NCBI GenBank assembly: GCA_963765535.1
Contig: CAVXWU010000017.1
Location: 160,199-224,198 of the forward strand
Source: an uncultured Verrucomicrobiae bacterium
GTDB lineage: Bacteria; Verrucomicrobiota; Verrucomicrobiia; Limisphaerales; JAHDYP01
Direction of reading: 5' to 3'
DNA: 64,000 bases
In this document: one piece after another, positions 19,164-44,357 of the stretch
Layout of the letters: the number at the start of each line of letters is the position of its first letter
How positions within the stretch are numbered: position 1 is the first letter of the stretch
Translations under genes and position numbers: made by a program
Notes under the pieces: model-generated
Told to the model about the DNA's origin: nothing
The model's input: only the letters and a program-made list of their open reading frames with translations
Database searches by the model: none

Positions 19164-19308
19164 GTTCCCCCGCAAGCGAGATTGTCCCGCCGCCTTCCAC
19201 CTAACTCCTACTCGCTCGCATGCGATCGTCGCCGCTCGCTGCGGAGGATTCCCTTCGGTTTCGTGTTGTATGTACCGATCCCCTTTGGCTTTGATCAACC
19301 CGCAGCCA

Positions 19309-20553
19309 ATGGCCAATCGCTTCAATGCCCAAGCCGCCGCCGGTCGCTTCCGATTTCGAATCGCCGCAGCCGTTGGGCTAGTTTTCCTCGCCACCGGGTG
19401 CGGCAGGCATCCCGCCGCCGCCGTAGCTCCTCCGGCGCCGCGCACGGTGCAGATTGGCAGCGCCGCGCTTCGACCCATGACGCGCGACGTGATCGCGATC
19501 GGGACATTGCTGGCCCGCGAGGAAGCCACCCTAAGTGTCAAGGTCCCTGGCCGCCTCCAACTTCTCGAAGTGGATCTCGGCGCCGCCGTCACCAACGGCC
19601 AGTTGCTCGCGCAAGTCGAGGCTCGGGATTACGAGCTGGAGTTGAGGCAGGCCGAGGCGTTCCTGGCCCAGGCCCGTGCGCGGTTGGGACTGCCGCTGGA
19701 AGGCCAGGAGGACAATGTCGATCCCGCCGAAACGAGCACTGTCCAGCAGACCCGCGCCCGGCTGGTGGAGGCGCGGTTGAATCGGGAACGTCTGATTAAA
19801 TTGGCCGAACAAGGAATCCTTGCGCAATCCGAACTCGAATCCGCGGAGGCGGCCTACGAGGTCGCCGCCAATGTGCATCGCAATGCCCTCGAAGAAGCCA
19901 AGAATCGCCTCGCACAACTTGCCCAACGGAAGGTCGAAGTCGAGATCGCTGAGAAAAAGCTGGTGGATGCCTCGGTCCGGGCGCCGTTTGCGGGTACGGT
20001 CAAAGAACGGCGGGCCAGCTTGGGCGAGTATCTGCCGGTCGGCACCCCAATCCTCACCTTGGTAGCCACGGACCCCCTTCGCCTCCGGTTGGAAGTGCCC
20101 GAACGCGATGCCGCCTCTGTGCGAATGGGCCAGCCCGTCCGGATCCTGGATGATGGCGAACCGACCTCGTATACCGGAGTAATCCGGCGTGTCAGCCCCG
20201 CAATCGATCCCACTACGCGTATGCTCGTGGTGGAAGCCGACGTACCCAACGATGGCTCGCTCCGGCCTGGGGCGTTCGCCCAGGCGGAAATCACGATCGC
20301 AAAGGCCGAGAACACGCTTACGGTGCCGCCGCAGGCCCTGGTCACCTTCGCCGGCATCGAAAAGGTTTTTGTGGTTGAGGATGGCAAGGCTTTGGAAAAG
20401 AACGTTGGCACCGGCCGGCGCGAACGCGATTGGATTGAGATCGTAAGCGGACTGCGTAATGGCGAAACCGTGGTGCTCAATCCCGGTAACCTCCAAAGCG
20501 GCCAGCCCGTCAAGATCGGCCCCGAATCCTCCGTGGCGGCCTCAAGCGGCTAA
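19309..20553 (+). CDS. efflux RND periplasmic adaptor (membrane fusion protein), lipoprotein
   Basis: I chose the ATG at 19309 because it gives a lipobox (AAAVGLVFLATGC). The coiled-coil hairpin and beta-barrel pattern (..VEARDYELELRQAEA..; ..VRAPFAGTVKERRASLGEYL..) is typical of the HlyD/AcrA family. An RND pump gene follows 13 nt later. Confidence 0.8.
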   Translation: MANRFNAQAAAGRFRFRIAAAVGLVFLATGCGRHPAAAVAPPAPRTVQIGSAALRPMTRDVIAIGTLLAREEATLSVKVPGRLQLLEVDLGAAVTNGQLLAQVEARDYELELRQAEAFLAQARARLGLPLEGQEDNVDPAETSTVQQTRARLVEARLNRERLIKLAEQGILAQSELESAEAAYEVAANVHRNALEEAKNRLAQLAQRKVEVEIAEKKLVDASVRAPFAGTVKERRASLGEYLPVGTPILTLVATDPLRLRLEVPERDAASVRMGQPVRILDDGEPTSYTGVIRRVSPAIDPTTRMLVVEADVPNDGSLRPGAFAQAEITIAKAENTLTVPPQALVTFAGIEKVFVVEDGKALEKNVGTGRRERDWIEIVSGLRNGETVVLNPGNLQSGQPVKIGPESSVAASSG

Positions 20554-20566
20554 TACCCGAGCGATC

Positions 20567-23500: not shown

Positions 23501-23755
23501 CTTATGACCACCCTCACTCTGGTCGCCGGCATGCTCCCGCTCGCGCTGGGCACCGGGCCCGGCGCCGAGGAACGCCGCGCGGTGGCCATCGTCGTCATCG
23601 GTGGACAGACCCTATGCCTGCTCCTTACCCTGCTCGTAACGCCCGTGGTCTACTCGCTCCTGGATGATGCGGCCGAGATGTTCCGTCGACGCCTGCGCCA
23701 CCCCGCCGCCCTTCCGGCGAAATCCGGTTGCGAGGTCCCTTCCTTGGACGGTTGA
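20567..23755 (+). CDS. efflux RND transporter permease
   Basis: An in-frame GTG at 20567 gives VQKLAEISIRRPVFATMLVLALVVVG.., the canonical RND N-terminus. About 1060 aa with repeated 6-TM halves (..DDAIVVLENIFR..; ..KKNAILQIDH..). Confidence 0.85.
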   Translation: MQKLAEISIRRPVFATMLVLALVVVGITAYLNLGVDRSPRVDVPTIYISTRLPGASPVEIETLISQPIEETVNTVEGITELRSISGNGFSFVIVQFDLRRNVNLAAEDIRTRLATVVNSLPREADPPVIFKFDTERSPILSIALTGPRTLRELTELADKIVKLHLERCLGVGEVELRGDLERAISIWIDPDRLAAYGIAITEVRDAIARQNANIPGGYIMSPLQERSLRTLGRIENPREFNDLVVATREGSAIRIRDLGWAEDGSKEQRSTSRLNGQPTVTLEIRRQTDANTVEVIEAVKAAIPGLASQLPADVRLEIIEDQSRYIYEALHEIRAHLILGSILASLVVFAFMRSWRSTVIAAVAIPASVISTFGMMWAMDFTLNSVTMLALVLMVGVVIDDAIVVLENIFRFVEEKQLSAREAARAATAEIGLAVLATTLSLVVIFVPVSFMSSIAGRFLFQFGLTAAVAVLVSLLVSFTLTPMMSSRLFAYRAIARDEQARPKSRGGFYAHLDRGYHRLLNWAMHHRLVVAGAALLVMIGSLPLYHAVPQEYTPTNTDEGEFEVRLTAREGTSLLAMDEAARIAETRILSLPQVRTALATIGSTRIGGANQARFYVRIAPHEERTFRWGRLLSLTPWRAFSGNYSQNDVMREIRSRLSDLAGIRIAVRGGQSSISAGGPNFEIDFSLLGPELEDLAHYGELLRDRAPELGLEDADTTLKLDKPELKVEIDRERAAALGVDTQDIADALRIMVGGEERVSRYRDAQVNEEYDVQLRLIESGRNSAETISRLYVPRRGQGLIRLDNLVQLVPGTTASRIDRLDRQRQVSLRAGIADGYALSDRLEALRQAVREMNLPPTYTTRVSGRGRELETTFNEFLWAFLLSVIFMYMILASQYESLVHPFTILLSLPLSLPFALFSLWISGNTLNLYSALGLLVLFGVVKKNAILQIDHMNQLRRKGQERLSAILQANRDRLRPILMTTLTLVAGMLPLALGTGPGAEERRAVAIVVIGGQTLCLLLTLLVTPVVYSLLDDAAEMFRRRLRHPAALPAKSGCEVPSLDG

Positions 23756-31168: not shown

Positions 31169-33114
31169 AAAACGATCGCACATGGTATCCCCTGACGGGC
31201 ACATTGAGCAGGCCCCGCAACTTGACCGCCGCCGCGAAGAAAAAGGAACCGATTGACCCGCTCGCCGGACCGAAGCTCGCGCTGGCCGGCCGAGTGGTGA
31301 CGATGAACGCGGTACGCGCGATTCAATCGAAAGGAATCGTGTATGTGGAGAATGGTGTGATCGTCGCCGTCCAGGACGAGGAACAATCGGCGCCGGCGGG
31401 ATTTGCGGGCGTGTCGGTGGTGGAGACGGGAGGCACGATCATTCCCGGGTTGATCGAGCTTCACAATCATCTCAGTTACAATGCCCTGCCCCTTTGGGCG
31501 CCCGTGCCGAAGCGTTTCACGCATCGTGGCCAGTGGCCCAACCACAAGGATTACCGTCCTCTGGTCAGCGGACCCATGACCGTTGTCGGCAAGTACAAGG
31601 ACTCGAAGGGCCATTACCCGCTCTTGCCCGCGCTGGTTCGGTACGTCGAGTGCAAGTGCCTGCTCGGGGGAGTCACCACCAGCCAGGGCATCAGGCTGGC
31701 CAGCAACGCTGGAATCCAGCGATTTTATCGCGGCATCGTCCGCAATGTCGAGCAGACCTATGATCTCGAATTGCCGGCCGCCCAGGGTCGGATCCCGGAC
31801 CTCGAGGCAAAAGACGCGAATAGCTTCCTGACCCGCCTGATGAAAGAGGACAGTTGCTTTCTGCTGCACCTCAGCGAAGGCATAACAGACCCCGCACATC
31901 CGCTCTCCATCGCCCGCAAACATTTCCTGGCACTTGAGGTGGCTCCCGACCAGTGGGCACTGAACAAAGTCTTTGCCGGCATCCACGCGGCCGGTCTGTT
32001 GCCGCCGGACTTCGATGTGCTCGCGCAATACGGAAGCTCGATCGTCTGGTCGCCTCTGAGCAATCTGCTGTTGTACGGCGGTACCGCGCGCGTGGAGGAC
32101 GCCAAAAAGGCCGGAGTCACCATCGGTCTGGGCAGCGATTGGTCGCCCACAGGCAGCAAGAACCTACTCGGCGAACTCAAGGTCGCCTGGCTCCACAGCC
32201 AGCACGCCCTCGATGGCCTGTTCACCGCCTGCGATATCCTGGCCATGGCCACCTGCAACGCCGCCCGGATCCTCAAATGGGACAAGGCCCTTGGAACCAT
32301 CGAACGCGGCAAACGCGCCGACCTCATCGTGATCGGCGGGGCGACCTCCGATCCCTACGACACCGTGATCCAGGCAGATGAAACGGATCTCCAATTGGTG
32401 ATGATCAACGGCATCGCCCGTTATGGTGTGCCCAGCCTGATGAACTCTCTTTCTCCCGGCAGCACGAGCGTCAAGATAGGTGGACAATCCCGACGTCTCT
32501 TCCTGAAACAGGAAACCGCCGATCCGGATGTGGCTCACGTGTCGCTTAGCCACGCCACCACCACCCTCCGTAATGCCTTCAAAGATATCGCCAAACTCGC
32601 GAAGGAGACGGAGAAAGCAAAACCCTCCAGCGCGACCGGACGGTTGCTCGACGCAGCCCCTGAACCGGTCTGGTCACTTGCCCTGGATGAGATCTGCTTT
32701 TGCGGCGTCGAACTTAGTCCGCGCCTGCCATTCGCCGGTCCCCGCGACTTCACGGGTCCCGAGCGCGCCCCGAAGATCCTGGCCAAGCCTTCCCCGCCTC
32801 TCTCCGAAATCCTCGAGCCAATCCGGTTGGATCCGCTAACCGTGGTGGATGATGCCGCATTCCTGGATCGGATCGCCCAACAACCCAATGTTCCGGAACC
32901 GGTCCGAAACGGCCTGGCGGAGCTGTACCTGAAGAATCGAATCCGCGTCCTTCCCATCTGCTCGCTCCTTCGCGCTGGTCTCTTCTTCGGCTCAATTCTA
33001 CCTGGAACCGGGCGCGGTTTCAGGGTCGTTGCAGGTGCGCGGCAATGTCCCGTGCCGCCTTGGTCTCGAGGCCGGGCTTCTGGAGAAAACCTAGATCGCG
33101 GAACCAATCGATGA
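31165..33114 (+). CDS. amidohydrolase-superfamily protein with about 200-aa C-terminal extension
   Basis: GGTIIPGLIELHNHLSYN is the metal-binding HxH strand 1 of amidohydrolases and aminohydrolases. Later blocks include ..LLHLSEG.. and ..GLGSDWSPTGS... The last 95 nt overlap the convergent esterase gene and read as R/G-rich low-quality sequence, so the true 3' end is uncertain. Confidence 0.65.
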   Translation: MKNDRTWYPLTGTLSRPRNLTAAAKKKEPIDPLAGPKLALAGRVVTMNAVRAIQSKGIVYVENGVIVAVQDEEQSAPAGFAGVSVVETGGTIIPGLIELHNHLSYNALPLWAPVPKRFTHRGQWPNHKDYRPLVSGPMTVVGKYKDSKGHYPLLPALVRYVECKCLLGGVTTSQGIRLASNAGIQRFYRGIVRNVEQTYDLELPAAQGRIPDLEAKDANSFLTRLMKEDSCFLLHLSEGITDPAHPLSIARKHFLALEVAPDQWALNKVFAGIHAAGLLPPDFDVLAQYGSSIVWSPLSNLLLYGGTARVEDAKKAGVTIGLGSDWSPTGSKNLLGELKVAWLHSQHALDGLFTACDILAMATCNAARILKWDKALGTIERGKRADLIVIGGATSDPYDTVIQADETDLQLVMINGIARYGVPSLMNSLSPGSTSVKIGGQSRRLFLKQETADPDVAHVSLSHATTTLRNAFKDIAKLAKETEKAKPSSATGRLLDAAPEPVWSLALDEICFCGVELSPRLPFAGPRDFTGPERAPKILAKPSPPLSEILEPIRLDPLTVVDDAAFLDRIAQQPNVPEPVRNGLAELYLKNRIRVLPICSLLRAGLFFGSILPGTGRGFRVVAGARQCPVPPWSRGRASGENLDRGTNR

Positions 33115-34150
33115 ATCGCTCCTGCCAGGTCCCAAATGGGATGCCAGCCCGGTCCCCAAGTCCGCCGCCCATCCGGCTGCCATCGCTCAACCGGTCACCC
33201 GGATGCCGCCCGTTTCCGTAAAGGTGGATTTCGAGATTTGGAATCGACGCCTCGAGCATCGCCGCGAAGTATTGATTCGCCCAGATGGCATGAACCCGAT
33301 CGCCGGTGCTGGCTCCGACGATGAATGTCGGAGGCGCGTTGCGTGGAATCGGCGGGTTCGCCCCGTGGTCGAACGGCGTGGGGCCCGGATACACCAGCCC
33401 AACGAAATCCGGACGTGAGGAGATCCCGGCCAGGGGATCGCTGGGGTCCGTCTGGTGATCGAATTCCTCGAAGTCGATCGCAGCCGGTGCGGCCAATTCG
33501 GCGCCGGCCGAGAACCCCATGATCCCGATCTTGTGCGGATCGAGCCCCCAAGCCGTCGCGTGGGCCCGTACCAGTCGGATGGATTGCAAAGCGTCATGGA
33601 CGGCATCGGTTTGGACGTTGTAACCGTCACGACGCAGTCGGTAACGAAGGATAATGGTGTTGACGCCGTAGTTGTAGAAGTAAGGCACAAAGTCGGCGCC
33701 TTCCGTCCCCACGTTCAGCGTCTTATGTCCGCCGCCCGCGGCCAGGATAACGGCTGCGCCGGTGTTCATTCCCCCTTCGACGGTGTGCACCTCAATCGAT
33801 GGGTTGTGGATATTGACGATGCTGTTGATCCGCCCCGGCGCCGCCGAACTCAGATGATACTCCTCCGCCTCACGAACCCGCTCCGCATTCAGATGGGGTG
33901 AGTTCGGCGGATACAGCGGCAGAATCACGCCGCCCGGCAGGATCGGTTGCGGCGCATACGGCGCTTCATTTGCAAGGCCGGGCGCGGGAACTCCCAAGGG
34001 CGGCGGTTCGGGCGGCGATGTTGCGGCTGTCACGGCCGCGCCCCATATCGCAGGCAGGATGGCCGTCAACATCATCCCTTGCATGCGAGCCCGCGAACGC
34101 CGGATCCGCAGGGTCGCGCCGGCACCCTGTTCTTCCCTTGTCGTTATCAT
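33020..34150 (-). CDS. secreted alpha/beta-hydrolase (esterase/lipase)
   Basis: Leader ..RIRRSRARMQGMMLTAILPAIWGAAVTAA. Nucleophile elbow GFSAGAE (GxSxG). The start overlaps the stop of the upstream lipase-CHAT gene by 4 nt (34147-34150). Confidence 0.7.
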   Translation of the reverse strand: MITTREEQGAGATLRIRRSRARMQGMMLTAILPAIWGAAVTAATSPPEPPPLGVPAPGLANEAPYAPQPILPGGVILPLYPPNSPHLNAERVREAEEYHLSSAAPGRINSIVNIHNPSIEVHTVEGGMNTGAAVILAAGGGHKTLNVGTEGADFVPYFYNYGVNTIILRYRLRRDGYNVQTDAVHDALQSIRLVRAHATAWGLDPHKIGIMGFSAGAELAAPAAIDFEEFDHQTDPSDPLAGISSRPDFVGLVYPGPTPFDHGANPPIPRNAPPTFIVGASTGDRVHAIWANQYFAAMLEASIPNLEIHLYGNGRHPGDRLSDGSRMGGGLGDRAGIPFGTWQERFIDWFRDLGFLQKPGLETKAARDIAAHLQRP

Positions 34151-37100
34151 CTTTCTTTGAGTTGAAAATCGGCGCTCCCGTATAAAACGTAATCGGCCCA
34201 GTCCGCCGATCCCAGCGCCTCGACCTTCTGCCGGCCCTGGAGCAAGGCCTCGCCGAGCGAAGTGCCGTTGATCACCTTGGTGTAAAACTCCTCCGCGAAG
34301 GTCATCGCGGCGTCATCATTCACCGGCCAGTATGTGCCAATGTAATTGGCAACGCCGCCACGCAAATAGGCCTCAGCCAGGCCAATGTTCTCCTCAATCC
34401 GTTTCCGCACCGGCTTGTCCGGTTTGGCCTTGCGCGTCCTGCCGCTCTCGCACGCGTTAAAGAACACGAGATTGGGAAGTCTGGCGAGTGAAACCAATTC
34501 GGCCCCGCTCAGGACCTGGTCGCCGGCGCAAATGATCCCACTGCGCAAGGGTTTCGCCGGGTCGAAGAACGCATGTCCGGCGTAATGGAGCACATCAAAA
34601 TCGCCGGAAGAAAAATCCTTTAAAAGTCCGGGTTTGGTGGCTTGGGCTTGAAACCGGCGCACGAGCTCGAATCCCGGGCGCGTTGAGAACAATTTACTGA
34701 TGCGTTCCCCTTCCCGCACCGCGCCATCAAGGTTGCCGGACGGATCGACGACCAGGAGAATCTTCAGCACCGGGTTCTTCTTCCTTTGCTCGAGCATTTT
34801 TGCCACCGACAGGTTCTCCGCAGCGTAGCGACGGCTCAACCCGCCGGTCAGCGCCGGAACCCACTGCTCGATGCGCATGGTCTCCCAGGGAATCCGCGAA
34901 GCCGCGGCATCGTGCACGATCACCAGGTGCTTGTCGCGCATCGCCTCGAGCACGGTCAGAATGTTGCCCCCCAGGACCAGGTCGCTCAATTCTGCCCCGA
35001 ACTCGGCGATCGAACGTTCGAAGTCCGCGCGTTCTATCCGGGCCAGGATCGTGTTGAGGGCCGCGTTGTTGACCAGCTTTCTTTCCGTCACCACAGCCGC
35101 TTTGGAACCGGATGTCAGAAGCGAAGCTTGAAACTCCGAACTGCCGTCCGCCGAGTCTTCCTGCCGGACCAACAGATAAGCGGGCGCGGCCGAGATCGCG
35201 GCCAGCCCGCGGGCCTGCGCTGCCAGGACCGGCGCGATCGGCAATTCTTCTTCTTCGAAACTGACTTCAATGGCGTCGAACAGCTCCGTGCTCGCCAGCC
35301 GGTAAAGCTGCTCGCGAATCTCACTAAAGCGTACCGAGTCCGTCTCGCAAAGGGTCACTCGCCTGAAGTTATGCCCTTTGTCGGCATCCAGAAGCCCGCG
35401 GACGAATCCCGCCAGCATGTGGCGAAGCGAAACGCCGATGTCTTTGCCCGACGCTCCTCCCATAACGACCGTGGCAAAATCATCCACTCCACTCCGGATC
35501 AGCGTCCGGATGACATTCTCCGCCACCAGTTCGAGAACATCCTGGGTGAAGCGATCGAATGTCCCCAAACCGGCGAGCAATATGTGGTCGGGGATCAAGG
35601 CGTGAAAACCCGTTGGGACGATAAACACCTCCCCGACGTCACCGCCAAACATGCGCCGCCGGCTGAAATCCGCAATGGCGCCATCCACGCGGAGATCGAT
35701 GGCCTGGGCCGCCCCGGTGGGCGTGACATCCCGAAAGACTCCTAAAACGTAAGCCTTGCTGTTTGCCTCCGTGATGCTGCCGCGCGCTAATCGCAAGTCT
35801 AATCGCCGTTGCAGCCGTCGGCCAACAACCACTCCTTTGACCGAAACAACCGGGCTCGAAACCGCCGGCGTGGGCTCGTCTTTCGAGGCCGGCGCGGCAA
35901 CCTCTTCCAGGAGTTCGCGCACCGCCTGGTCGCTCACCGCGACCCCTTTGGCGGCTACCGCCGCATCCGGCACCGCGCTTCGCACGGTCGCTTCATCGAT
36001 AACACGCGGCGCGGCCCGCTGCGGCAACCATTGCTGCGGCAGTGCGTCGGTCTTCCCGAGCGAAAGCAGGTCCTTAACCGCCGTGATGACCTTTGAATGG
36101 TTGGGGAGACTGCCGTGTGATTCTTCGACATAATACGTGGGCACGTTCGGAAGCTGCGCGAACGCGAGCGGCACCGTGCCGTCACCATCCTTGCTTAACG
36201 AAAACGTGAACTCGGTTCCGTCAAAATGCGCGTCGGTAACCGTGTCCTGGTTGATCCCCGCAATCAAAAGGAAACGTTCGTCCGGAGCCGCCAGATAACC
36301 TTGCGCTTTCCGCCCCGCATCCAACAGGGCTTGACGCGGTGTCGGCCCGCTCTTGGGCCAGGATTCGACATCGAACACGTCAAACGAGGAAAACTTCTCC
36401 GTCGCCGGCAACATCTGGTGCAGCCCGGGAAAAGTGCTGAATACTTTCTGCGCGAGTTCTTCGGGCGAATGCGCCAGGTCGAGCAGCGCGATCTTTCGGA
36501 TGATCGGGTAAATCGCGCGCAATGCCTGGATGGGAACAAACGAACCGTAGTTGGGTGTCCCCAGCATGATCAGTCGTTTGACTTTCTGCCCCACGGACTT
36601 CAGTGCCACCCGGGAAACCAACCCGCCCATGCTGTGGGCCACCAGCGAAACCTCCTTGGCCGGCTCATCGGCGATGCGCTTCGCAAGTTCCAATCCCAGC
36701 CCGTCGATGCTCTGTCTCCAATCGAACGGGTGAAAAGCCGCGTCATAACCCGCGAGTTTGAGGGCCAGCTTCATTTTGAGGTAACTGAACAAAATGACGC
36801 CAAGCGCCTTGTGCCGGACCGGACCCGGAATCAGCGACAGGCTCAGGAGTTGTCCGGCCGCAATATCGATCGGATCGACCCAGATGACGTCATCGAAGAA
36901 GAAGGCGCGTTCCGAGCCGAGCGTGGAGCCCATGATTCCCGGCAGGATCAGCACGCGAGGTCCACCCCGCACAGAACGCGCGCTGGCATCGCGGGCGAGC
37001 GCCTTTAACTGTTCATACTCGCGCTCGCCAAAATAACGCTTCAGTAAGTCGGAATACTGCCCCGTCACCAAAGCATTCTCGATTTCTTCCGGCTGCATCT

Positions 37101-37248
37101 TGAACGGAGCGGACGGATGATTCGCCACGGCGTGCATCGTATGGACGCGGGTCTCCGCGACGGATTGCGTTGATGACCTCTCCTTCTTGCGCGCGCTGGC
37201 TTTTTTGTTATTGGCTTTGTTCTTCATAGGTGGCGTGTGCTTTCTCAC
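34147..37248 (-). CDS. three-module fusion: LCAT/PGAP1-like lipase + macro-like (M17-N-like) domain + CHAT protease
   Basis: Lipase module (about aa 95-395): ILPGIMGS, AHSMGG (Ser206), GTPNYGS, DGDGTVP (Asp), ESHGS (His378). Middle module (about aa 485-650): KAYVLGVF..AIDLRVDGAIADF..FGGDVGEVFIVP..ILLAGLG resembles the macro-like N-domain of M17 aminopeptidases. CHAT module (about aa 690-1025): DVLHYAGHA (His892) and LVFFNACESG (Cys933). The N-terminus is basic and non-hydrophobic (MKNKANNKKASARKKER), so there is no signal peptide. Confidence 0.8.
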   Translation of the reverse strand: MRKHTPPMKNKANNKKASARKKERSSTQSVAETRVHTMHAVANHPSAPFKMQPEEIENALVTGQYSDLLKRYFGEREYEQLKALARDASARSVRGGPRVLILPGIMGSTLGSERAFFFDDVIWVDPIDIAAGQLLSLSLIPGPVRHKALGVILFSYLKMKLALKLAGYDAAFHPFDWRQSIDGLGLELAKRIADEPAKEVSLVAHSMGGLVSRVALKSVGQKVKRLIMLGTPNYGSFVPIQALRAIYPIIRKIALLDLAHSPEELAQKVFSTFPGLHQMLPATEKFSSFDVFDVESWPKSGPTPRQALLDAGRKAQGYLAAPDERFLLIAGINQDTVTDAHFDGTEFTFSLSKDGDGTVPLAFAQLPNVPTYYVEESHGSLPNHSKVITAVKDLLSLGKTDALPQQWLPQRAAPRVIDEATVRSAVPDAAVAAKGVAVSDQAVRELLEEVAAPASKDEPTPAVSSPVVSVKGVVVGRRLQRRLDLRLARGSITEANSKAYVLGVFRDVTPTGAAQAIDLRVDGAIADFSRRRMFGGDVGEVFIVPTGFHALIPDHILLAGLGTFDRFTQDVLELVAENVIRTLIRSGVDDFATVVMGGASGKDIGVSLRHMLAGFVRGLLDADKGHNFRRVTLCETDSVRFSEIREQLYRLASTELFDAIEVSFEEEELPIAPVLAAQARGLAAISAAPAYLLVRQEDSADGSSEFQASLLTSGSKAAVVTERKLVNNAALNTILARIERADFERSIAEFGAELSDLVLGGNILTVLEAMRDKHLVIVHDAAASRIPWETMRIEQWVPALTGGLSRRYAAENLSVAKMLEQRKKNPVLKILLVVDPSGNLDGAVREGERISKLFSTRPGFELVRRFQAQATKPGLLKDFSSGDFDVLHYAGHAFFDPAKPLRSGIICAGDQVLSGAELVSLARLPNLVFFNACESGRTRKAKPDKPVRKRIEENIGLAEAYLRGGVANYIGTYWPVNDDAAMTFAEEFYTKVINGTSLGEALLQGRQKVEALGSADWADYVLYGSADFQLKER

Positions 37249-37751
37249 TTCCGGATGAATCTGGCGCCAGGATGATCAAAATATTGGTTTTCGCCGCCGC
37301 CTGTGCCGACCACGACAGACCCAGCAGACCGGCGAACAGTATTCGGAGAAGATATGGCATCTAACCCAGTCTGGCTCGCTGAGCTCCAACCCGGCAACGG
37401 GGCGGAATTAATCCCGAAAACCAAAAGCCTCGATCCATGGCTCCGGGAAGTTCAGTTCTTGACCCGCCCGCGATAACATTGCGCGATTAGGGATTGTAAG
37501 GCGTGGCATGAACCGGGGCAAGTTTGGAGATGGTCAACGGTGGGTTGGGTGCGGACTCCATCGCCGATCCTTTGCCAGGCCTGACCCGCCTATTTCATGC
37601 ATGTTCGCTCAATGAGTTGCCGTTGGAACGGAGAGTGAAATGAATATGCGGGCTAAAACGTCGTCACCGAAACCCACACGTCCCGTGCCATGGAACCCGG
37701 CGTGGAGCTGTCGGGGACGGTCACTCCGCCATGCCCAGGACCGAGGAACGT

Positions 37752-37781
37752 TTGACAAGCGGAGCATTGCTAACCTAATCT
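37752..37781 (+). promoter_or_regulatory. possible sigma70-type promoter for the SGNH gene
   Basis: Perfect TTGACA at 37752-37757, and 18 nt later TAATCT (37776-37781), about 27 nt upstream of the ATG at 37808. The -10 element is weak. Confidence 0.25.
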
Positions 37782-37807
37782 AATGGTCTAATGTTGATAA
37801 TTAGAGC

Positions 37808-39805
37808 ATGAAGATACGTTCCTCGCTCCGTCCAGGCCATGCGCATCGCGTCCTCCTTCTGATCAGCCTGATTGCGGCTGCGCTGGCCGCACCCACAAAC
37901 TTACAGGCCCAGCGTCCCTTCACGATCGTATCGGTTGGGGACTCGGTGGCTTCGGGAGAAGGGAACCCGGACGTGCCGCAGGAAATCGCGCTGAACCAGG
38001 CTTACAATCCCATCCCGTTTCTTCCGAATCTGGCGTACGATCCACTGCCTCAGATTCCCAATCGGGCGTTCGATCCGTTCCCGGAACGGATCAATCCCAA
38101 TTACGATCCACGTCCCAGGATCATCAATCTCAGCTACCAGCCGTTTGGGGTGCCGGCATTTCTGGCGCCGTTGCTGCCGGATTTTCCAGCCTACGATCCC
38201 AATTTGACCAAACCCAATCCCAATTATGATCCTGATTTGAAGATGCCGAATCCGGCTTATGATCCTGATCCCCTGGTTTCCAATCCCGATTATAATCCCG
38301 ATCTATTCACCGACATCCCCAACCCGGAGTATGATCCCAATATCTACACCACGAACAGGCCGGCGATTTGGGCGAAGGAAGCGGACCATCGATCGAATCT
38401 TGCCGGGCCGGCCCTGGCGGCGGCTGAATTGATGATGAATCATCCGGCTCAGAATATCAGCTTTTTTCATCGGGCGAAGTCGGGGGCCAACATCTCCGAT
38501 ATCAGCACCCAGATTGATAAAGCACTTACAGAAGCGGGAGGGCGAATCGATGTCCTGATGATTTCAGCGGGCGGAAACAATATTGGGGGAGCCGGTTTTG
38601 GGAAACTCTTTGAAGATGTTTTGGAATCGGTAAAAGGCGGCCAAAGGCCTTCTCAGGATCCTGAACTGAATACGAGGATTGCCGTCGGGTTTACCACCAT
38701 GTCCAACGAGTTTACCCGTTTGGCGACCCACATCCGCCGGTGCGAAGTGGGTGAAGTGTTTATCACGGAGTATTTTGATTTGACCCACGGTTCGGATGGA
38801 GAGTTTTGCATTGATTTCGATTCCGGGATTCCCGGCGTGGCTTTTGAGGAGATGAAGTGGGCTTACGAACGGATCATCATCCCATTGAACCAAACGATCC
38901 AATCGGCGGCTGCGGTCAATGGCTGGCATTACGTGGGTGGGATCGCCGAAGGATTTCGAAATCATGGTTATTGTGCCGACCGGGACGTGGACGCCAGGCC
39001 GATCCTTCCCAACCCCGATTTTGATCCACGCCAGAATATTCCAAACCGGGACTACAATCCCATCGAGCGAATTCCCAATGAAGCTTTTAACCCGGTGCAA
39101 AACCTGCCGAATTTGAATTACAATCCAGTTCAGTGGAAACCCAACCGGAACTATGATCCGAGGGCTAATATTCCCAACCCGGATTTCAATATCAATCCAC
39201 TCAGCCCGGACTACGACCCGCGAATCACCATCCCTAATCCGAATTACGATAACCGGCTGCTCGTTCTCAATCCCGGCTACAATCCGAACCCGACAATTCC
39301 CAATCCTGATTACAATCCCGACCTGACCGGTCCCAACCCGGACTACGACAATCGATGGACGGTTCCCAACCCGAATTACAATCCCAACCTGACGATCTCG
39401 AACCCGGACTTCGATCCTGTGCCGCTCGATGGAGAAAACTGGGTGCGAAGAGTGGAAGAATCGTATTTACTTCAAGGCGACAAGGAAGGCACCGCGCATC
39501 CCAACGGCAGGGGCCAGGAATTCTATGGTCAGCGTTTGGTGGAGGAGATCTCTGCCGTTGGTCTGGAGAATATTTTGCTTTGCCCTGAAATCGTGAGCAT
39601 TGAACGGGGTAATTCGTCGATTCGCTTCAGCCTGAGCAGTGAATATCCCGCGGAATCGCTGAAACTTCAGTCCGCTTCGGATCTCGCGAACTTCATTTGG
39701 ACTGACGAATCCGCCGGCATTTCCGACCTGGGAGACGGCATGATGGGGGCGCACATTGAAGCGGGGAGCGAGGGCGTCAGGTTTTTCCGGGTGGTTGCGG
39801 AATGA
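37808..39805 (+). CDS. secreted SGNH/GDSL hydrolase with two large insertions of 11-residue Asn/Pro repeats
   Basis: Signal peptide MKIRSSLRPGHAHRVLLLISLIAAALAAPTNLQA. SGNH block I VSVGDSVASGEG, block II AKSGAN, block III ISAGGNNIG, block V-like GTAHPNGRG. The C-terminal module ends in VRFFRVVAE. Confidence 0.75.
   Translation: MKIRSSLRPGHAHRVLLLISLIAAALAAPTNLQAQRPFTIVSVGDSVASGEGNPDVPQEIALNQAYNPIPFLPNLAYDPLPQIPNRAFDPFPERINPNYDPRPRIINLSYQPFGVPAFLAPLLPDFPAYDPNLTKPNPNYDPDLKMPNPAYDPDPLVSNPDYNPDLFTDIPNPEYDPNIYTTNRPAIWAKEADHRSNLAGPALAAAELMMNHPAQNISFFHRAKSGANISDISTQIDKALTEAGGRIDVLMISAGGNNIGGAGFGKLFEDVLESVKGGQRPSQDPELNTRIAVGFTTMSNEFTRLATHIRRCEVGEVFITEYFDLTHGSDGEFCIDFDSGIPGVAFEEMKWAYERIIIPLNQTIQSAAAVNGWHYVGGIAEGFRNHGYCADRDVDARPILPNPDFDPRQNIPNRDYNPIERIPNEAFNPVQNLPNLNYNPVQWKPNRNYDPRANIPNPDFNINPLSPDYDPRITIPNPNYDNRLLVLNPGYNPNPTIPNPDYNPDLTGPNPDYDNRWTVPNPNYNPNLTISNPDFDPVPLDGENWVRRVEESYLLQGDKEGTAHPNGRGQEFYGQRLVEEISAVGLENILLCPEIVSIERGNSSIRFSLSSEYPAESLKLQSASDLANFIWTDESAGISDLGDGMMGAHIEAGSEGVRFFRVVAE
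37994..38356 (+). repeat. intragenic repeat tract 1: about 9 copies of N-x-x-[YF]-[DN]-P-x-x-x-[IL]-P (11-aa period)
   Basis: NQAYNPIPFLP NLAYDPLPQIP NRAFDPFPERI NPNYDPRPRII ... NPNYDPDLKMP NPAYDPDPLVS NPDYNPDLFTDIP NPEYDPNIYTT. The tract lies between SGNH blocks I and II. Confidence 0.85.
38993..39427 (+). repeat. intragenic repeat tract 2: about 13 copies of the same 11-aa repeat
   Basis: NPDFDPRQNIP NRDYNPIERIP NEAFNPVQNLP NLNYNPVQWKP NRNYDPRANIP ... NPNYDNRLLVL NPGYNPNPTIP NPDYNPDLTGP NPDYDNRWTVP NPNYNPNLTIS NPDFDPVPL. The tract lies between SGNH blocks III and V. Confidence 0.85.
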
Positions 39806-40007: not shown

Positions 40008-41192
40008 ATGAAATTGATTTGTTGTCGATCCTTGTTCGTTGGTCTCTCGATCCTCCCAGTCCTGTACTTGTCCGTTGGCTGTGGCAAAGTCTCTTCTTCG
40101 GCTCCAAAACGTCCACCCGCGTCCGTTTCCGTGCTCACGGTCACGACCGCACCGTTGAGTCTCACGACAGAACTGCCCGGACGCATCAATCCCGTCCGGG
40201 AGGCCCAGGTGCGCGCGCGGGCCACGGGTATTCTGCTCAAACGCTTGTTCGACGAAGGCGCGGATGTGAAGGAAGGAGATGTCCTGTTTGAAATTGATCC
40301 GGAGCCACTGCAGGCGCGGCTGAACAGCGCCCAGGCCGCCCTCGCCAAGGCCGAGGCCGCCCTGAAAGAATCCACCACCACCTTGGAGCGCTACCGGGAT
40401 CTGGTCCAAATCAATGCCATCAGTAAACAGTCCGTCGACGAAGCCCAGGCGATGGTCGGTCAAAATGAAGCCGAAGTCATGGCCGCAAAAGCCGAAGTGC
40501 GCACCGCCGAGTTGAACCTCAGTTATACACAGGTTACCGCTCCCATCTCCGGACGCATCGGCCGCGCGCTCGTCACCGAAGGCGCCCTTGTGAGCGCGAC
40601 CGAAGCCACGCAACTCGCCCTGATTCGCCAATTGGACCCGGTCTATTTCGACTTTACGGAGTCCAGCGCCGAAGTGCTTCGACTCAAACGCGGCCTCGAT
40701 AGCCCCGCTCCCATTCCTTCCCGTTCGGGGTCGGCCACGGTAACCCTGCTCCTGGAGGACAACCTCACCTATCCCGAACAGGGCGAAATCCTGTTCTCCG
40801 ATATCTCGGTCGATCCCACTACCGGTATGGTCCCATTGCGGGCGCGGGTGCCCAATCCACAACGGATTCTGCTCCCCGGCATGTTCGTGCGCGGTCGAAT
40901 TGTTCAATCCGTTATCACCAATGCCATCACGGTCCCCGAACGCACCGTGACCCACGGCGTGGGCGGCGCTGCAACCGTGCTCATCGTCAACGATCAGAAT
41001 ACGGTCGAACTCCGTCCTGTCGACCTCGAGCGAACGATCGGAACCAAGGTGCTCGTAAGTCGCGGCTTGAGCGCCGGCGATCGCATCATTGTGGAAGGCT
41101 CCCAGAAAGCCCCGCCGGGGTCCGTGGTTGTCCCGGTACCATTCCAATCCGACGCCGCGGATGCCGGAGCCGGCCGCACCGCTGACCGGTGA
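40008..41192 (+). CDS. efflux RND periplasmic adaptor (AcrA/MexA-like), lipoprotein
   Basis: Lipobox ILPVLYLSVGC. ..TELPGRINPVREAQVRARATGILLKRLFDEGADVKEGDVLFEIDP.. is strongly AcrA/MexA-like. Confidence 0.85.
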   Translation: MKLICCRSLFVGLSILPVLYLSVGCGKVSSSAPKRPPASVSVLTVTTAPLSLTTELPGRINPVREAQVRARATGILLKRLFDEGADVKEGDVLFEIDPEPLQARLNSAQAALAKAEAALKESTTTLERYRDLVQINAISKQSVDEAQAMVGQNEAEVMAAKAEVRTAELNLSYTQVTAPISGRIGRALVTEGALVSATEATQLALIRQLDPVYFDFTESSAEVLRLKRGLDSPAPIPSRSGSATVTLLLEDNLTYPEQGEILFSDISVDPTTGMVPLRARVPNPQRILLPGMFVRGRIVQSVITNAITVPERTVTHGVGGAATVLIVNDQNTVELRPVDLERTIGTKVLVSRGLSAGDRIIVEGSQKAPPGSVVVPVPFQSDAADAGAGRTADR

Positions 41193-41198
41193 TTTGTC

Positions 41199-44100
41199 AT
41201 GGCTCGATTCTTCATCTATCGCCCGGTCTTTGCCTGGGTTGTCTCCATCCTCATCATGGTGTTGGGTGGGTTGGCCATCATCCAATTGCCCGTCGCCCAG
41301 TATCCTAACGTCGCGCCGCCTTCCATCTCCGTGACGGCCAATTACGCCGGGGCCTCCGCCGAAACGCTCCAGGACACCGTGACTTCGGTGATCGAGCAAC
41401 AACTCAATGGCATAGATAACCTGCTCTACATGTCATCCAGCAGCGATGCCTCGGGCCTGGCGACGGTAACGCTCTATTTTATGGCCGGCACGAATCCGGA
41501 CACTGCCCAGGTGCAAGTGCAGAATAAAGTGCAGCTCGCTACTCCGAGCCTCCCCCAAACCGTCCAACAGCAGGGCGTCGTTATTGCGAAAGCCACCCGC
41601 AATTTCATGATGTTCTTCACGCTCTCGACCGAGAACGACAGCCTCGATCAGGCCGCTTTGGGCAACTACATCGCTGCCAAGGTTCTCGATCCCATCCGCC
41701 GCGTCAGCGGCGTCGGCGAAGCCCTCATGTTCGGTTCCCAATACGCCATGCGCATTTGGCTCAATCCCGATAAACTGAACAGCTTCGGGTTGACCGCCAG
41801 CGACGTCACCGCCGCCATTCAGGCCCAGAATACCCAGGTGCCGGTCGGCCAGATCGGAGCCAACCCATCCGTTGAAGGTCAGCAGCTCAACGTCATTATG
41901 CAGGGCCGGACCACCTTGCGGACGGTCCCCCAATTTGAACAAATTGTGCTGCGCATGAACCCCGACGGCTCGCGCGTGCTCCTCAAAGACGTCGCCCAAG
42001 TCGCCCTCGGCGCGGAGAATTACGGAACGCAGGCGCGCGTGAACGGCCATCCCTCCGCGGCCGTCGCCATTCGGCTCGCGCCCACCGCCAACGCGCTAAC
42101 CACGGCGAATGCGGTGCACCAAAAGGTGGAAGAACTGGCGAAGTTTTTCCCGGCCGGTGTTCGCGTCGACTATCCCCTCAACACTTCATCGTTCGTCCGG
42201 ATTTCCATCATCGAAGTGTTGAAGACCCTGGCCGAGGCCATCCTCCTCGTCTTCCTGGTCATGTACCTCTTTCTTCAGAATTTCCGCGCCACCCTGATCC
42301 CGACCATCGTTGTGCCGGTGGCATTGCTTGGAACCTTCGGCGCGATGCTCGCCTTCGGCTTCTCCATCAATGTGTTGACGATGTTCGGCATGGTCCTGGC
42401 CATCGGGATCCTGGTCGATGATGCCATCGTCGTGGTCGAAAACGTCGAACGCATCATGGCCGAAGAAGGGTTGTCCCCGCTCGAAGCGACGGTCAAGGCC
42501 ATGAGTCAGATCACGGGCGCGCTGGTCGGTATCACCCTGGTCCTGACTGCCGTCTTCATCCCGATGGCTTTCTTCTCCGGTTCGGTCGGCAATATCTATC
42601 GGCAGTTCTCCCTCTCACTGGTGTCGTCGATGTTGTTCTCGGTGTTTCTCGCGATGTCGTTGACCCCGGCCCTCTGCGCCACATTGCTTCGCCCAATCCC
42701 CAAAGGCCATAAGCATGACAAGCGCGGGATCTTCGGGGGGTTCAATCGCGGTTTTGCGCGCGCGACCAACCGCTACCAAAAATGGGTGGCGCAGCTCCTG
42801 AAAAGAACCCTTGCCGCCATGCTCACGTTCGCTGCGATCATCGGCGCCGTCGCGCTTTTGTATCAGCGAATGCCCTCGGCATTCCTGCCCACGGAAGATC
42901 AAGGCTATTTCATCACCAACATTCAATTGCCCGTCGGCGCAACCCAGGAACGCACAACCAAAGTCCTCGAGCAGGTCGAGGATTATTACTCCAAACAACC
43001 CGAGATCGAAAGCTTCATCACCGTGGCCGGATTCAGCTTTAACGGACGCGGACAGAATTCTGCCCTCTCCTTCGCGCGGCTCAAGGACTGGGATGAGCGC
43101 AGCGGCGCCCAGCACAGTGTCCAAGGGGTGATCGGCCGGGCGGCCGCCCATTTTGCCTCCATCAAGGATGCCATCATTTTCCCGGTAAACCCGCCGCCCA
43201 TCGCAGAGATGGGTAATTCGGCCGGGTTCGATTTTCAGCTTCTGGATCTGGGCGGCCTGGGACATGAGAAACTGATGGAGGCCCGTGATCAGTTGCTTGG
43301 CCTGGCGGCGCAGAATCCCCTTGTCGTAGGTGTGCGCCCGCAGGGGCTGGAAGATGGCGCGCAACTCAAGATCGAGGTGGACCAGGACAAAGCGACTGCC
43401 CTCGGGGTTGAACTCGCCGAGATCAACGCCACCCTGCAAACCTGCTTCGGTTCGACCTATGTGAACAATTTCGTAAACGGCAACCGCGTTCAACGGGTGA
43501 TCGTGCAACTCGACGCGCCGTATCGGATGTCGCCCGATGACATCAAACGTGTTTACGTCCGTAATCGCGGAGGAGAAATGGTGCCTTTATCCGCCTTCGC
43601 CAAGGTGAATTGGGTCTATGGCTCTCCTCAGCTCCAAAAATATAATGGGTTCCCCTCTATCGAAATTGTGGGGTCCGCCGTCCCCGGCAGAAGCACCGGT
43701 GAAGCCATGGAAGCCATGGAAGCCATGGCCGAAAAGCTGCCCGCCGGAATCAGCTACGAATGGACCGGCCAATCGTTCGAGGAACGGTTGGCGGGCGCCC
43801 AGGCCCCGATGCTTTACCTGCTCTCGCTGCTTGTGGTCTTCCTGTGCCTTGCGGCCCTTTACGAGAGTTGGGCCATTCCTTTCTCCGTGATTCTGATCGT
43901 GCCCCTGGGTGTGCTCGGCGGGCTGATCGCCGCCTCGCTTCGTGGCTTGCCGAACGACGTCTACTTCAAGGTCGGCTTGCTGGCCACGGTTGGACTGGCA
44001 ACCAAGAACGCGATCCTCATCATCGAATACGCCAAAGACCTTCAAGCCACCGGCAGAAACCTCATCGACGCCACCCTCGAAGCCGTGCACCTGCGGCTGC

Positions 44101-44357
44101 GACCCATTCTGATGACCTCCTTCGCCTTCATTCTCGGCGTCATGCCGCTCGTCCTGAGTCGAGGCGCCGGATCGGCCAGTCAAAACGCGATCGGCACCGG
44201 CGTAGCCGGCGGAATGTTCGCCGCTACCGTTCTTGGCATTTTTCTGGTGCCGGTCTTCTATGTGGTCGTCGTCCGATTGTTCAAACCCAAAGTGCAGTCA
44301 CGGCCACACCCCGCAAGTGTGGAAGTCGTAGACGGCGACAGCACCCCGGCGGTCTGA
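41199..44357 (+). CDS. multidrug efflux RND permease (AcrB/MexB-like)
   Basis: MARFFIYRPVFAWVVSILIMVLGGLAIIQLPVAQYPNVAPPSISVTANYAGASAETLQDTVTSVIEQQLNG is the canonical AcrB/MexB N-terminus. 1052 aa. Confidence 0.9.
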   Translation: MARFFIYRPVFAWVVSILIMVLGGLAIIQLPVAQYPNVAPPSISVTANYAGASAETLQDTVTSVIEQQLNGIDNLLYMSSSSDASGLATVTLYFMAGTNPDTAQVQVQNKVQLATPSLPQTVQQQGVVIAKATRNFMMFFTLSTENDSLDQAALGNYIAAKVLDPIRRVSGVGEALMFGSQYAMRIWLNPDKLNSFGLTASDVTAAIQAQNTQVPVGQIGANPSVEGQQLNVIMQGRTTLRTVPQFEQIVLRMNPDGSRVLLKDVAQVALGAENYGTQARVNGHPSAAVAIRLAPTANALTTANAVHQKVEELAKFFPAGVRVDYPLNTSSFVRISIIEVLKTLAEAILLVFLVMYLFLQNFRATLIPTIVVPVALLGTFGAMLAFGFSINVLTMFGMVLAIGILVDDAIVVVENVERIMAEEGLSPLEATVKAMSQITGALVGITLVLTAVFIPMAFFSGSVGNIYRQFSLSLVSSMLFSVFLAMSLTPALCATLLRPIPKGHKHDKRGIFGGFNRGFARATNRYQKWVAQLLKRTLAAMLTFAAIIGAVALLYQRMPSAFLPTEDQGYFITNIQLPVGATQERTTKVLEQVEDYYSKQPEIESFITVAGFSFNGRGQNSALSFARLKDWDERSGAQHSVQGVIGRAAAHFASIKDAIIFPVNPPPIAEMGNSAGFDFQLLDLGGLGHEKLMEARDQLLGLAAQNPLVVGVRPQGLEDGAQLKIEVDQDKATALGVELAEINATLQTCFGSTYVNNFVNGNRVQRVIVQLDAPYRMSPDDIKRVYVRNRGGEMVPLSAFAKVNWVYGSPQLQKYNGFPSIEIVGSAVPGRSTGEAMEAMEAMAEKLPAGISYEWTGQSFEERLAGAQAPMLYLLSLLVVFLCLAALYESWAIPFSVILIVPLGVLGGLIAASLRGLPNDVYFKVGLLATVGLATKNAILIIEYAKDLQATGRNLIDATLEAVHLRLRPILMTSFAFILGVMPLVLSRGAGSASQNAIGTGVAGGMFAATVLGIFLVPVFYVVVVRLFKPKVQSRPHPASVEVVDGDSTPAV

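Follow-up and report, generated by a model that had tools for sequence, protein, structure and literature searches.

Among the bacterial immune effectors recognised most recently are caspase-like and CHAT proteases that are fused to a sensor, as in Craspase, SAVED-CHAT, type IV Thoeris and Borvo; they have a parallel in the caspase cascades of eukaryotes. Here we describe a gene on the minus strand of a 64,000-nucleotide stretch of DNA (the window) from an uncultured Verrucomicrobiae bacterium (GenBank assembly GCA_963765535.1, contig CAVXWU010000017.1, positions 160,199 to 224,198 of the forward strand), the product of which joins a lipase, a macro-like domain and a CHAT domain in one chain. 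By analogy with the systems described below, we propose that it encodes a cytoplasmic single-chain effector of conflict or cell death, in which a ligand-sensing macro-CHAT module would control a phospholipase; we judge the chances of this to be about even. In SAVED-CHAT, ligand-induced filamentation activates the protein, which then cleaves and activates the C14 protease PCaspase (bioRxiv 10.1101/2023.06.23.546230). The macro domains of the Thoeris protein TM-macro ThsA bind ADP-ribose (ADPR)/IAD and oligomerise (PMC11204291). In type II Thoeris His-ADPR is sensed via a macro domain, in type IV Thoeris TIR-made N7-cADPR activates a caspase-like protease, and indiscriminate caspase-like effectors are also known (PMC13243611; bioRxiv 10.64898/2025.12.03.692087).

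A reading of the window made from the sequence only (the sequence-only reading) had claimed a fusion protein of 1033 amino acids (aa) at this position. The corresponding open reading frame (ORF) does exist (34147..37248, minus strand; 1033 codons counted from GTG 37248 in the ORF list and its translation), but the protein is likelier to be 1026 aa long and to start at ATG 37227 (34147..37227, minus strand, stop TGA at 34147-34149; translation checked), because two public gene calls begin there: that of the identical protein (P0001, 1026 aa), at a Met seven codons inside the GTG ORF, and that of an 83% identical homologue (P0002), at the equivalent Met. The in-frame GTG at 37248 would lengthen the protein N-terminally by seven residues. 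Residue numbers given here are those of the 1026-aa protein, in which S206, H892 and C933 of the sequence-only reading are S199, H885 and C926. A Pfam scan of this protein gave three domains above the curated cut-offs, CHAT, Peptidase_M17_N and LCAT (with PGAP1 alongside). The middle and the CHAT domain thus both pass profile detection, and the catalytic residues are correctly aligned, two points on which the sequence-only reading had made itself dependent. An alignment of 69 homologues with 48-83% identity was used for the analysis of conservation and for an AlphaFold2 model. S199/D349/H371 and H885/C926 were invariant in this alignment; both catalytic sets are intact and strongly conserved, and both enzymes are maintained in the family. 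The model had a mean pLDDT of 82.5 and a pTM of 0.54, which means that the individual domains are confidently predicted and their mutual arrangement is not. Given the Pfam scores and the more than 1000 full-length homologues, a chance match as the source of the three-domain architecture is excluded.

When compared with the described systems, the window protein appears to work most like a sensor-fused CHAT effector, and it is not a member of Borvo, SAVED-CHAT, TPR-CHAT/Craspase, Thoeris or the Tle toxins. Like SAVED-CHAT of Haliangium ochraceum (associated with CBASS/type III-B CRISPR; PDB 8tl0), it carries its putative sensor N-terminally to CHAT, and the CHAT domains match structurally; moreover, the C14 PCaspase partner of SAVED-CHAT is mirrored in the family by an adjacent or fused Peptidase_C14. 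In contrast to SAVED-CHAT, the sensor is of a macro/M17_N-like fold (Pfam gave no SAVED match at E<=1 in the window protein), and a lipase head is fused in addition. No cyclase, Cas10 or CRISPR genes were present within 10 kb on either side in the window, and none were recurrent in the surveyed loci. With regard to Thoeris, ThsA of type II and ThsE of type IV are comparable in being a macro receptor or a caspase-like effector of a TIR signal, and some family variants and loci have a TIR. However, the macro-like domain of the window protein is closest to M17_N and not to the ThsA macro domain, its protease is CHAT and not C14, and a ThsB-like TIR gene was found neither in the window neighbourhood nor in most loci. 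Borvo (BovA), the sole PADLOC match, is also a single polypeptide with CHAT, whereas the rest of the window protein is unrelated in architecture to BovA. TPR-CHAT/Csx29 (type III-E, Craspase) and separase have in common with the window protein a caspase-like CHAT/C50 fold, a His/Cys dyad and, on the model proposed here, regulation by a non-catalytic N-terminal region; unlike them, the window protein lacks TPR or HEAT repeats as well as a CRISPR context, and a partner resembling securin or Csx30 was not identified.

The strongest evidence for a role in conflict comes from the way the domains are combined. A search with the macro-like and CHAT domains only (aa 473-1026) against 1.8 billion representative proteins returned 479 representative clusters at E<=1e-30. 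Among 132 representatives of this core, 72 had a full and eight a partial lipase head, 37 had a short head, and the remaining 15 included two TIR heads, one caspase head, diverged lipases and some truncated calls. The short-head form, seen in many proteins (e.g. P0131), is 550-670 aa long and consists of Met and a short, often basic tail that leads directly into the macro-like domain. The combinations TIR_2 + M17_N + CHAT (P0175 and P0241), Peptidase_C14 + M17_N + CHAT (P0156) and LCAT + M17_N + CHAT + Peptidase_M64 (P0148) were confirmed by Pfam. In contig look-ups, the stand-alone genes and those with a TIR or a caspase head proved to be complete within their contigs. Representatives of intermediate length were considered as new architectures and mostly rejected; several of them start inside the lipase or the linker (P0235, P0123) and were therefore treated as truncated gene calls. 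On the Qingshengfaniella alkalisoli plasmid NZ_CP042263.1 (locus L126, 6983-9505), a lipase head that includes the helical lead-in and is 42% identical over aa 47-399 occurs in an 840-aa fusion with a C-terminal trypsin-like serine peptidase, which replaces the macro-CHAT partner. The macro-like and CHAT domains are the constant unit of the family and the N-terminal enzyme is exchangeable, while the lipase head is modular too. In addition, the fused head domains are of the same kinds as those that turn up among neighbour genes. This pattern of effector swaps and Rosetta-stone fusions suggests a place for the family in the repertoire of conflict or cell death.

A mechanism can be envisaged by analogy with SAVED-CHAT, the ThsA macro domain and type II and IV Thoeris. 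The macro-like domain would be a non-catalytic sensor for a small ligand, which is most plausibly a nucleotide derived from ADP-ribose, and/or a driver of oligomerisation, and ligand binding or oligomerisation would switch on the CHAT protease. Active CHAT might then cleave its own chain, for which a linker motif with an invariant Arg is a candidate site, and/or partner proteins, and the cleavage would unleash the N-terminal LCAT/LPLA2-like phospholipase. The basic N-terminal tail could help to place the lipase at the cytoplasmic membrane, on its inner face, so that the cell would be damaged from within. We infer both the lipid substrate and the trigger, which may be phage or some other stress. 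A broader proposal, possible but clearly tentative, is that macro-CHAT is a widespread and previously unrecognised signal-sensing protease core that reads an ADP-ribose-derived or other nucleotide alarm and proteolytically arms its head or partner (phospholipase, TIR NADase, C14, SIR2, PLD or zincin). If this is true, macro-CHAT would represent a bacterial single-chain 'initiator caspase plus executioner', of which the window protein would be the commonest, lipase-armed form. To the known sensor-fused proteases the family would add a macro-type sensor on CHAT and a built-in membrane-attacking lipase, giving a direct protease-to-lipase death switch. The natural head swaps (lipase, TIR, caspase or none) make the logic of the module testable.

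The lipase and the macro-like domain are joined by a variable linker that was modelled with low confidence (aa 401-467; 35827..36027, minus strand; pLDDT 37-74) and has a predicted short helix at 433-444. The single conserved element of the linker is the motif VSDQAVRELLEEVAAP (35890-35937, minus strand), with the family consensus L-S-x-x-[ED]-x-R-x-L-L-[ED]-E-[VL]-[AV]-[SA]-P, in which Arg437 is found in 69 of 69 sequences. It may represent a cleavage or pseudosubstrate site. The motif bears on the main rival to a protease-licensed lipase, namely that the protein consists of two independent effectors without licensing, the macro-CHAT core being the executioner as in type IV Thoeris/Borvo and the lipase a parallel toxin or a membrane-localising module. 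We consider this unlikely. The stand-alone macro-CHAT genes are complete, and the core should therefore work without a head; TIR and C14 heads are effectors by themselves, and there are precedents for single-gene CHAT defence (the BovA model of PADLOC) and for indiscriminate caspase-like effectors (PMC13243611; bioRxiv 10.64898/2025.12.03.692087). However, the lipase head is repeatedly joined to unrelated protease classes (CHAT, trypsin-like, plus M64), and the lipase-headed forms keep the linker motif with its invariant Arg. Because of these two features, a functional dependence between protease and lipase is suggested, and control of the lipase by the macro-CHAT module is the reading we prefer. 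The other two rivals, a housekeeping enzyme and an exported toxin, are less likely and are taken up below.

The C-terminal domain (aa 744-1018; 34174..34998, minus strand) is, as judged by profile and fold, a bona fide CHAT member with a caspase-like fold. The match to Pfam CHAT (PF12770) covered profile positions 4-289 of 289 and scored 104.3 bits (cut-off 24, E 1e-29), and Foldseek searches of the PDB with the CHAT region gave separase, DdvA (an anti-sigma CHAT protein) and SAVED-CHAT with E values from 4e-10 to 1e-5. A search of PDB sequences with a full-length family profile returned lipases and weak matches to leucyl aminopeptidase (LAP) and no CHAT structure; Pfam and Foldseek are therefore the basis for the relationship to CHAT. 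Both of the catalytic residues named in the sequence-only reading are in place, His885 in HYAGHA (34573-34575, minus strand) and Cys926 in FFNACESG (34450-34452, minus strand). HYAGHA and NAC are invariant in the 69 homologues, and H885 and C926 are kept in all head variants. The catalytic Cys is followed by a variable, basic loop of low confidence (aa 927-945; pLDDT below 50 at 927-931), which is where caspases have their intersubunit linker. A beta-rich and helical connector (aa 651-743; 34999..35277, minus strand) leads from the macro-like domain to CHAT, with predicted strands at 654-661, 683-691, 697-704 and 712-719 followed by helices. This connector had no Pfam match and is conserved along with the core in every head variant.

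The middle segment, which had been likened to the macro-like N-domain of M17 aminopeptidases, indeed scored above the cut-off for Pfam Peptidase_M17_N (33 bits against 23.4, E 6.5e-8) and had macro-fold matches in Foldseek. The domain comprises aa 468-650 (35278..35826, minus strand) and has the loops G-S-I-T, P-x-G-A-A and G-x-G-S-G. The NCBIfam matches over this region were leucyl-aminopeptidase models, all below threshold. In the PDB, Foldseek matched the domain to the N-domain of PepA and to TTHA0132, a protein of macro fold (TM about 0.80); among viral models it matched macro domains of alphavirus nsP3 and a protein-ADP-ribose hydrolase (TM 0.75). A profile built from 27 diverse middle domains of the family matched LAP N-domains at E 1e-6 and AF1521 over its full length at E 0.012; a local repeat of the AF1521 alignment gave a score identical to that of the profile search. 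In this alignment the family motif G-[SD]-I-T falls on GDIT of AF1521, the Asp of which contacts the adenine, P-x-G-A-A on the Gly-rich loop 1, and G-x-G-S-G on loop 2 (SAGIYG). Across all head variants, conservation is highest at the glycines of these loops. The hydrolase Asn in NAAN of AF1521 is not kept, NAAN being aligned with LGVF in the family. On sequence and model, the middle domain is a true macro fold that keeps three ligand-cleft elements of ADP-ribose-binding macro domains, and the marginal alignment together with the fold matches fits a macro domain that binds and does not hydrolyse. As for the M17 leucyl aminopeptidase PepA, its N-domain is the best sequence relative and the macro fold is common to both. 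The window protein differs in that no M17 catalytic domain follows and in that its G[SD]IT and G-x-G-S-G loops align with the AF1521 cleft.

The N-terminal half of the protein consists of a basic tail, a conserved helical lead-in (aa 44-85) and an LCAT/LPLA2-like alpha/beta-hydrolase lipase (aa 86-400), the last two encoded at 36028..37098 (minus strand) and assigned by Pfam, PDB and Foldseek matches. All the lipase motifs listed in the sequence-only reading were found (ILPGIMGS, AHSMGG, GTPNYGS, DGDGTVP and ESHGS), with the catalytic set Ser199 in AHSMGG (36631-36633), Asp349 in DGDGTVP (36181-36183) and His371 in ESHGS (36115-36117), all on the minus strand. The nucleophile elbow AHSMGG, the Asp of DGDGTVP and the His of ESHGS are invariant in the 69-sequence alignment. 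Pfam LCAT matched with 31.1 bits (cut-off 21, E 1.9e-7) and PGAP1 with 27.7 bits (cut-off 24.3), and structural matches of the region were LPLA2 (4x90, target TM 0.60) and LCAT (5txf) in the PDB and LCAT-like phospholipases among viral models. The domain is therefore assigned on sequence and fold to the LCAT/PGAP1-like alpha/beta-hydrolase lipases, with a predicted activity on lipids. It belongs to the same subfamily as LCAT/lysosomal phospholipase A2 (LPLA2; PF02450) and the PGAP1-like lipases by hidden Markov model, fold and Ser-Asp-His triad; in contrast to LPLA2, with which it has 17% identity, it is cytoplasmic, bacterial and fused to a protease.

The tail (aa 1-43; 37099..37227, minus strand) is Lys/Arg-rich and disordered (net charge +8; pLDDT below 50 at residues 1-36). 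A signal peptide and a transmembrane segment were looked for in the window protein and neither was found, in agreement with what the sequence-only reading had stated; likewise, the longest hydrophobic run within the first 45 aa of 120 homologues was five residues, and none of the 120 had a signal peptide or a transmembrane segment. In 110 homologues the tail had a median length of 36 aa and a median net charge of +7, and the charge was at least +4 in 78%. The basic tail is conserved as a property and not as a sequence. This absence of export signals speaks against the idea that the protein is an exported antibacterial or anti-eukaryotic lipase toxin, comparable to the Tle effectors of type VI secretion systems (T6SS), in which CHAT would process the protein after delivery. 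Lipase toxins are common secreted effectors, an island in Nitrospira defluvii with a family gene also holds a Tle1-like lipase and an Imm53 gene, and the next gene in the window encodes an exported esterase. However, the examined loci have no PAAR, VgrG, Rhs or other delivery domain, no T6SS linkage and no conserved adjacent immunity gene, and the adjacent esterase is unique to the genome of the window. We consider an exported toxin highly improbable.

The family is large. A word-indexed protein search with the window protein gave 1270 matches, the best 120 of which are 930-1113 aa long, with at least 90% query coverage, 48-83% identity and the same three Pfam domains. These 120 are named "CHAT domain-containing protein" or "alpha/beta fold hydrolase", or carry a JGI carboxylesterase label. 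In JGI metagenomes, 494 confirmed relatives were recovered by two short motifs alone. Species-representative genomes with family members, the closest being 81-84% identical, belong to Nitrospirota, Verrucomicrobiota, Planctomycetota, Acidobacteriota, Gamma- and Deltaproteobacteria and Binatia, and a branch in Pyrinomonadaceae is collinear in architecture at 27% identity. The claim that the three-domain architecture was not recognised as a described system stands to the extent that we found no published description of the macro-CHAT core or the three-domain protein in the literature consulted (including surveys by the Aravind laboratory and a 2025 survey of TIR proteins), this coverage being incomplete and absence being no proof; but the architecture is not rare, since it is that of a large family across many phyla, at about 50% identity, under a generic database name. 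The family amounts to hundreds of clusters at 50% identity and occurs mainly in phyla of soil and freshwater that have been little studied (Nitrospirota, Verrucomicrobiota, Planctomycetota, Acidobacteriota, Myxococcota). Finding a function for it would therefore provide an annotation for thousands of proteins labelled "CHAT domain-containing". The interest lies chiefly in this family-level picture and not in the locus of the window.

The distance tree of the family has the shape of a star, and the phyla are intermixed in it. For example, one Nitrospirales protein falls together with sequences from Verrucomicrobiales and Deltaproteobacteria, and three lineages of Nitrospirota form no common cluster. 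Comparison of the window with nine related loci by tblastx showed no synteny outside the gene, even at 74-81% identity. Because of the star-like, phylum-mixed tree and the lack of flanking similarity, the gene bears the marks of an accessory, horizontally moving gene. A phage origin was considered and not supported, as IMG/VR and GenBank phages gave relatives of the lipase domain only. Low-GC, prophage-like viral contigs of IMG/VR (L039, 9986-12616; also L040-L042) encode an 876-aa protein with an LCAT-like N-terminus (PGIMGS, AHSMGG and GDGDGTVP; Pfam LCAT E 9e-20) followed by about 500 unassigned aa; its gene neighbours are methyltransferase, ThyX and sigma-factor genes.

Neighbour genes were surveyed in 99 assembled loci, which form 78 groups at <85% identity, by clustering the ORFs within 5 kb. 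Most of the loci share no neighbour, and there is no conserved synteny. A few kinds of genes recur nevertheless. An astacin/M10-like zincin peptidase is adjacent and co-directional in 6 of the 78 groups, a Peptidase_C14 caspase lies immediately upstream in three groups (Nitrospiraceae and the distant Pyrinomonadaceae branch), and a gene with a TPR-S sensor domain, confirmed by Pfam, follows 3-42 nucleotides (nt) downstream in two groups. SIR2_2 lies directly downstream in L005, where it overlaps the stop, and in L075. Further tight co-directional neighbours are a large Peptidase_S9 protein and CAP12/Pycsar-type or TIR_2 proteins. A TIR gene is found within 5 kb in 3 of 78 groups and a fused TIR in two representatives, which makes TIR a recurring and not a defining link. 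Altogether, a TIR, SIR2, TPR-S, C14 or astacin gene occurs within 5 kb in 15 of 78 groups, or in 12 of the 46 groups for which the flank was 6 kb or longer. When 119 immediate neighbours were tallied by Pfam and PADLOC, the same conflict-type families came first, the rest being singletons and mostly metabolic. Two candidates were dropped: L062 as a third TPR-S locus (its phmmer match was weaker and the scan gave Response_reg/TIR-like), and an amidohydrolase as a recurrent neighbour, which was present in two independent groups only and was unlike the amidohydrolase of the window. As the counts come without a background rate, the conflict-type neighbours represent a recurrent association and not a demonstrated enrichment.

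These data also bear on the possibility of a housekeeping or developmental role, in which a cytoplasmic acyltransferase/phospholipase for lipid remodelling would be tuned by the attached protease. Such an enzyme, unconnected with invaders, could serve the turnover of membranes, adaptation to stress or programmed lysis in bacteria that have complex lifestyles. Most loci, that of the window included, are flanked by metabolic or core genes (e.g. Rho, MurB, trehalose synthesis, transporters), the gene is single-copy and stable in size, and no immunity-like partner is conserved. On the other hand, the phylogeny is star-like and phylum-mixed without synteny among close relatives, the heads are swapped with TIR and caspase, and genes for TIR, SIR2, TPR-S and caspase are found repeatedly in tight linkage, all of which is atypical of housekeeping genes. 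We therefore regard a housekeeping role as quite improbable; if it were true, the family would be unusual in that a cytoplasmic LCAT-like lipase is regulated by a protease. The patchy, phylum-mixed distribution and the lack of synteny support the view that the family behaves like a conflict-system gene, as far as can be judged from sequences. The effector role put forward in the sequence-only reading thus agrees with the modular core, the patchy phylogeny and the recurrent conflict-type neighbours in 15 of 78 groups, but not with the locus of the window itself, which is ordinary and no defence or mobile island.

Several further observations weigh against a conflict effector with a ligand-sensing macro-CHAT module. 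About 80% of the independent loci (78 groups) have no conflict-type neighbour within 5 kb, and a TIR or cyclase partner that could produce a signal is not linked in most genomes. By sequence, the middle domain is closest to the N-domains of M17 aminopeptidases, which are not known to bind nucleotides, and the match to AF1521 is marginal. The pTM of the model carries no information on contacts between the domains. The PADLOC match to BovA is weak and partial (E 5e-6, 23.7 bits, profile positions 509-666 of 711, i.e. the CHAT core). No full-length member was found in IMG/VR viral contigs or GenBank phages. Finally, the flanks of the gene in the window are ordinary (HflX, MiaA, FloA, RND pumps, a GH38 mannosidase, and pectate-lyase-like, UDG-like and amidohydrolase proteins), a tRNA scan and Pfam searches of the flanking genes revealed no tRNA, integrase or defence gene nearby, and the GC content around the gene is normal. 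A mobile or defence island at this locus was rejected on these grounds in favour of ordinary chromosome.

Immediately downstream in the window lies a gene for an exported BD-FAE/PaeX-like carbohydrate esterase of 376 aa (33020..34150, minus strand; Pfam and NCBIfam), which is not part of the system. The translational coupling that had been suggested for the two genes has a real basis in the ATGA at 34147-34150, where the stop TGA of the lipase/CHAT gene overlaps the ATG of the esterase (4-nt overlap), and the esterase does have a secretion leader, with a twin-arginine-like n-region followed by a hydrophobic stretch; co-transcription of the two genes is likely. However, the arrangement is absent at the approximately 98 other loci. 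The esterase was rejected as a functional partner, as BLAST and phmmer searches against 605 neighbour proteins of 98 other loci returned only the esterase itself. In relatives with 74-81% identity, the downstream position is taken by an SNF2/SWIM helicase (L007) or by a convergent amidohydrolase (L034). The pairing is unique to the genome of the window and incidental, with no functional meaning detected. Because of its PaeX/AxeA-like profile and a neighbourhood rich in glycoside hydrolases, the protein is best read as an exported carbohydrate esterase whose gene merely abuts the lipase/CHAT gene.

On the upstream side, the non-coding stretch noted earlier, at about 560 nt, was found to be a gap of 559 nt between ORFs (37249-37807). 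It gave no noteworthy Rfam match, and a scan for promoters and terminators found one weak promoter-like site in the gap (two in the scanned region) and terminator-like sites, not above shuffled sequence. A regulatory RNA or element was therefore rejected. The only noteworthy ORF upstream is one of 50 aa, MPYLLRILFAGLLGLSWSAQAAAKTNILIILAPD... (37208-37360, minus strand), which overlaps the start of the CHAT gene in a different frame. It is signal-peptide-like and then resembles the start of a sulfatase-type N-terminus, with no Pfam match, and may be what is left of a gene that was cut short by the arrival of the CHAT gene.

Some individual loci of the family are described here for their gene content. 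On a Rhizobium leguminosarum megaplasmid (NZ_CP071627.1; L127, 11369-13328), a full-length member is followed co-directionally by two genes, one for a protein annotated as SIR2 family and one for a DNA/RNA non-specific endonuclease. The island of Nitrospira defluvii mentioned above (L023-L026, approximately 1-23000) contains, besides the family gene and the Tle1-like lipase, three TIR-WD40/AAA proteins, a ThsB-like TIR, a CAP12/Pycsar TIR, GDPD, a small TIR_2 protein and a transposase. Its far flank varies by strain and carries integrase/Rep_trans/Imm53, PglZ/HD or GH15. In Pyrinomonadaceae (L019, 4730-10282; also L018), the C14 caspase, the 27%-identical lipase/macro/CHAT protein and a murein hydrolase (SLT + PG_binding_1 + Peptidase_M74) form a co-directional cassette of three genes with overlapping or near-overlapping junctions, the stop of the family gene overlapping the start of the murein hydrolase; this cassette looks like a lysis module. 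In L124 (2374-3654), the stand-alone P0131 is followed after 47 nt by a PLD-like HKD protein (PLDc_2 with 26.4 bits, just below the cut-off) with a NAL1_N-like region. In L032 (410-9973), a giant LysM-repeat protein of 3187 aa ends 28 nt ahead of the family member, after which there are ParE/HTH and Phd-like toxin-antitoxin genes.

Elsewhere in the window, a divergent gene on the plus strand (37808-39805) encodes an exported 665-aa protein with a GDS(L)-like block, IVSVGDSVASGEGN (weak Lipase_GDSL_2 match, E 0.0025), flanked by long Pro/Asn-rich PNP-x-Y-[DN]-P repeats; this is the stretch of lowest GC content in the window (0.53). Two pairs of an HlyD-type adaptor and an AcrB-type RND efflux protein (19270-23755 and 40008-44357, plus strand) lie within 25 kb and flank the lipase/CHAT gene.

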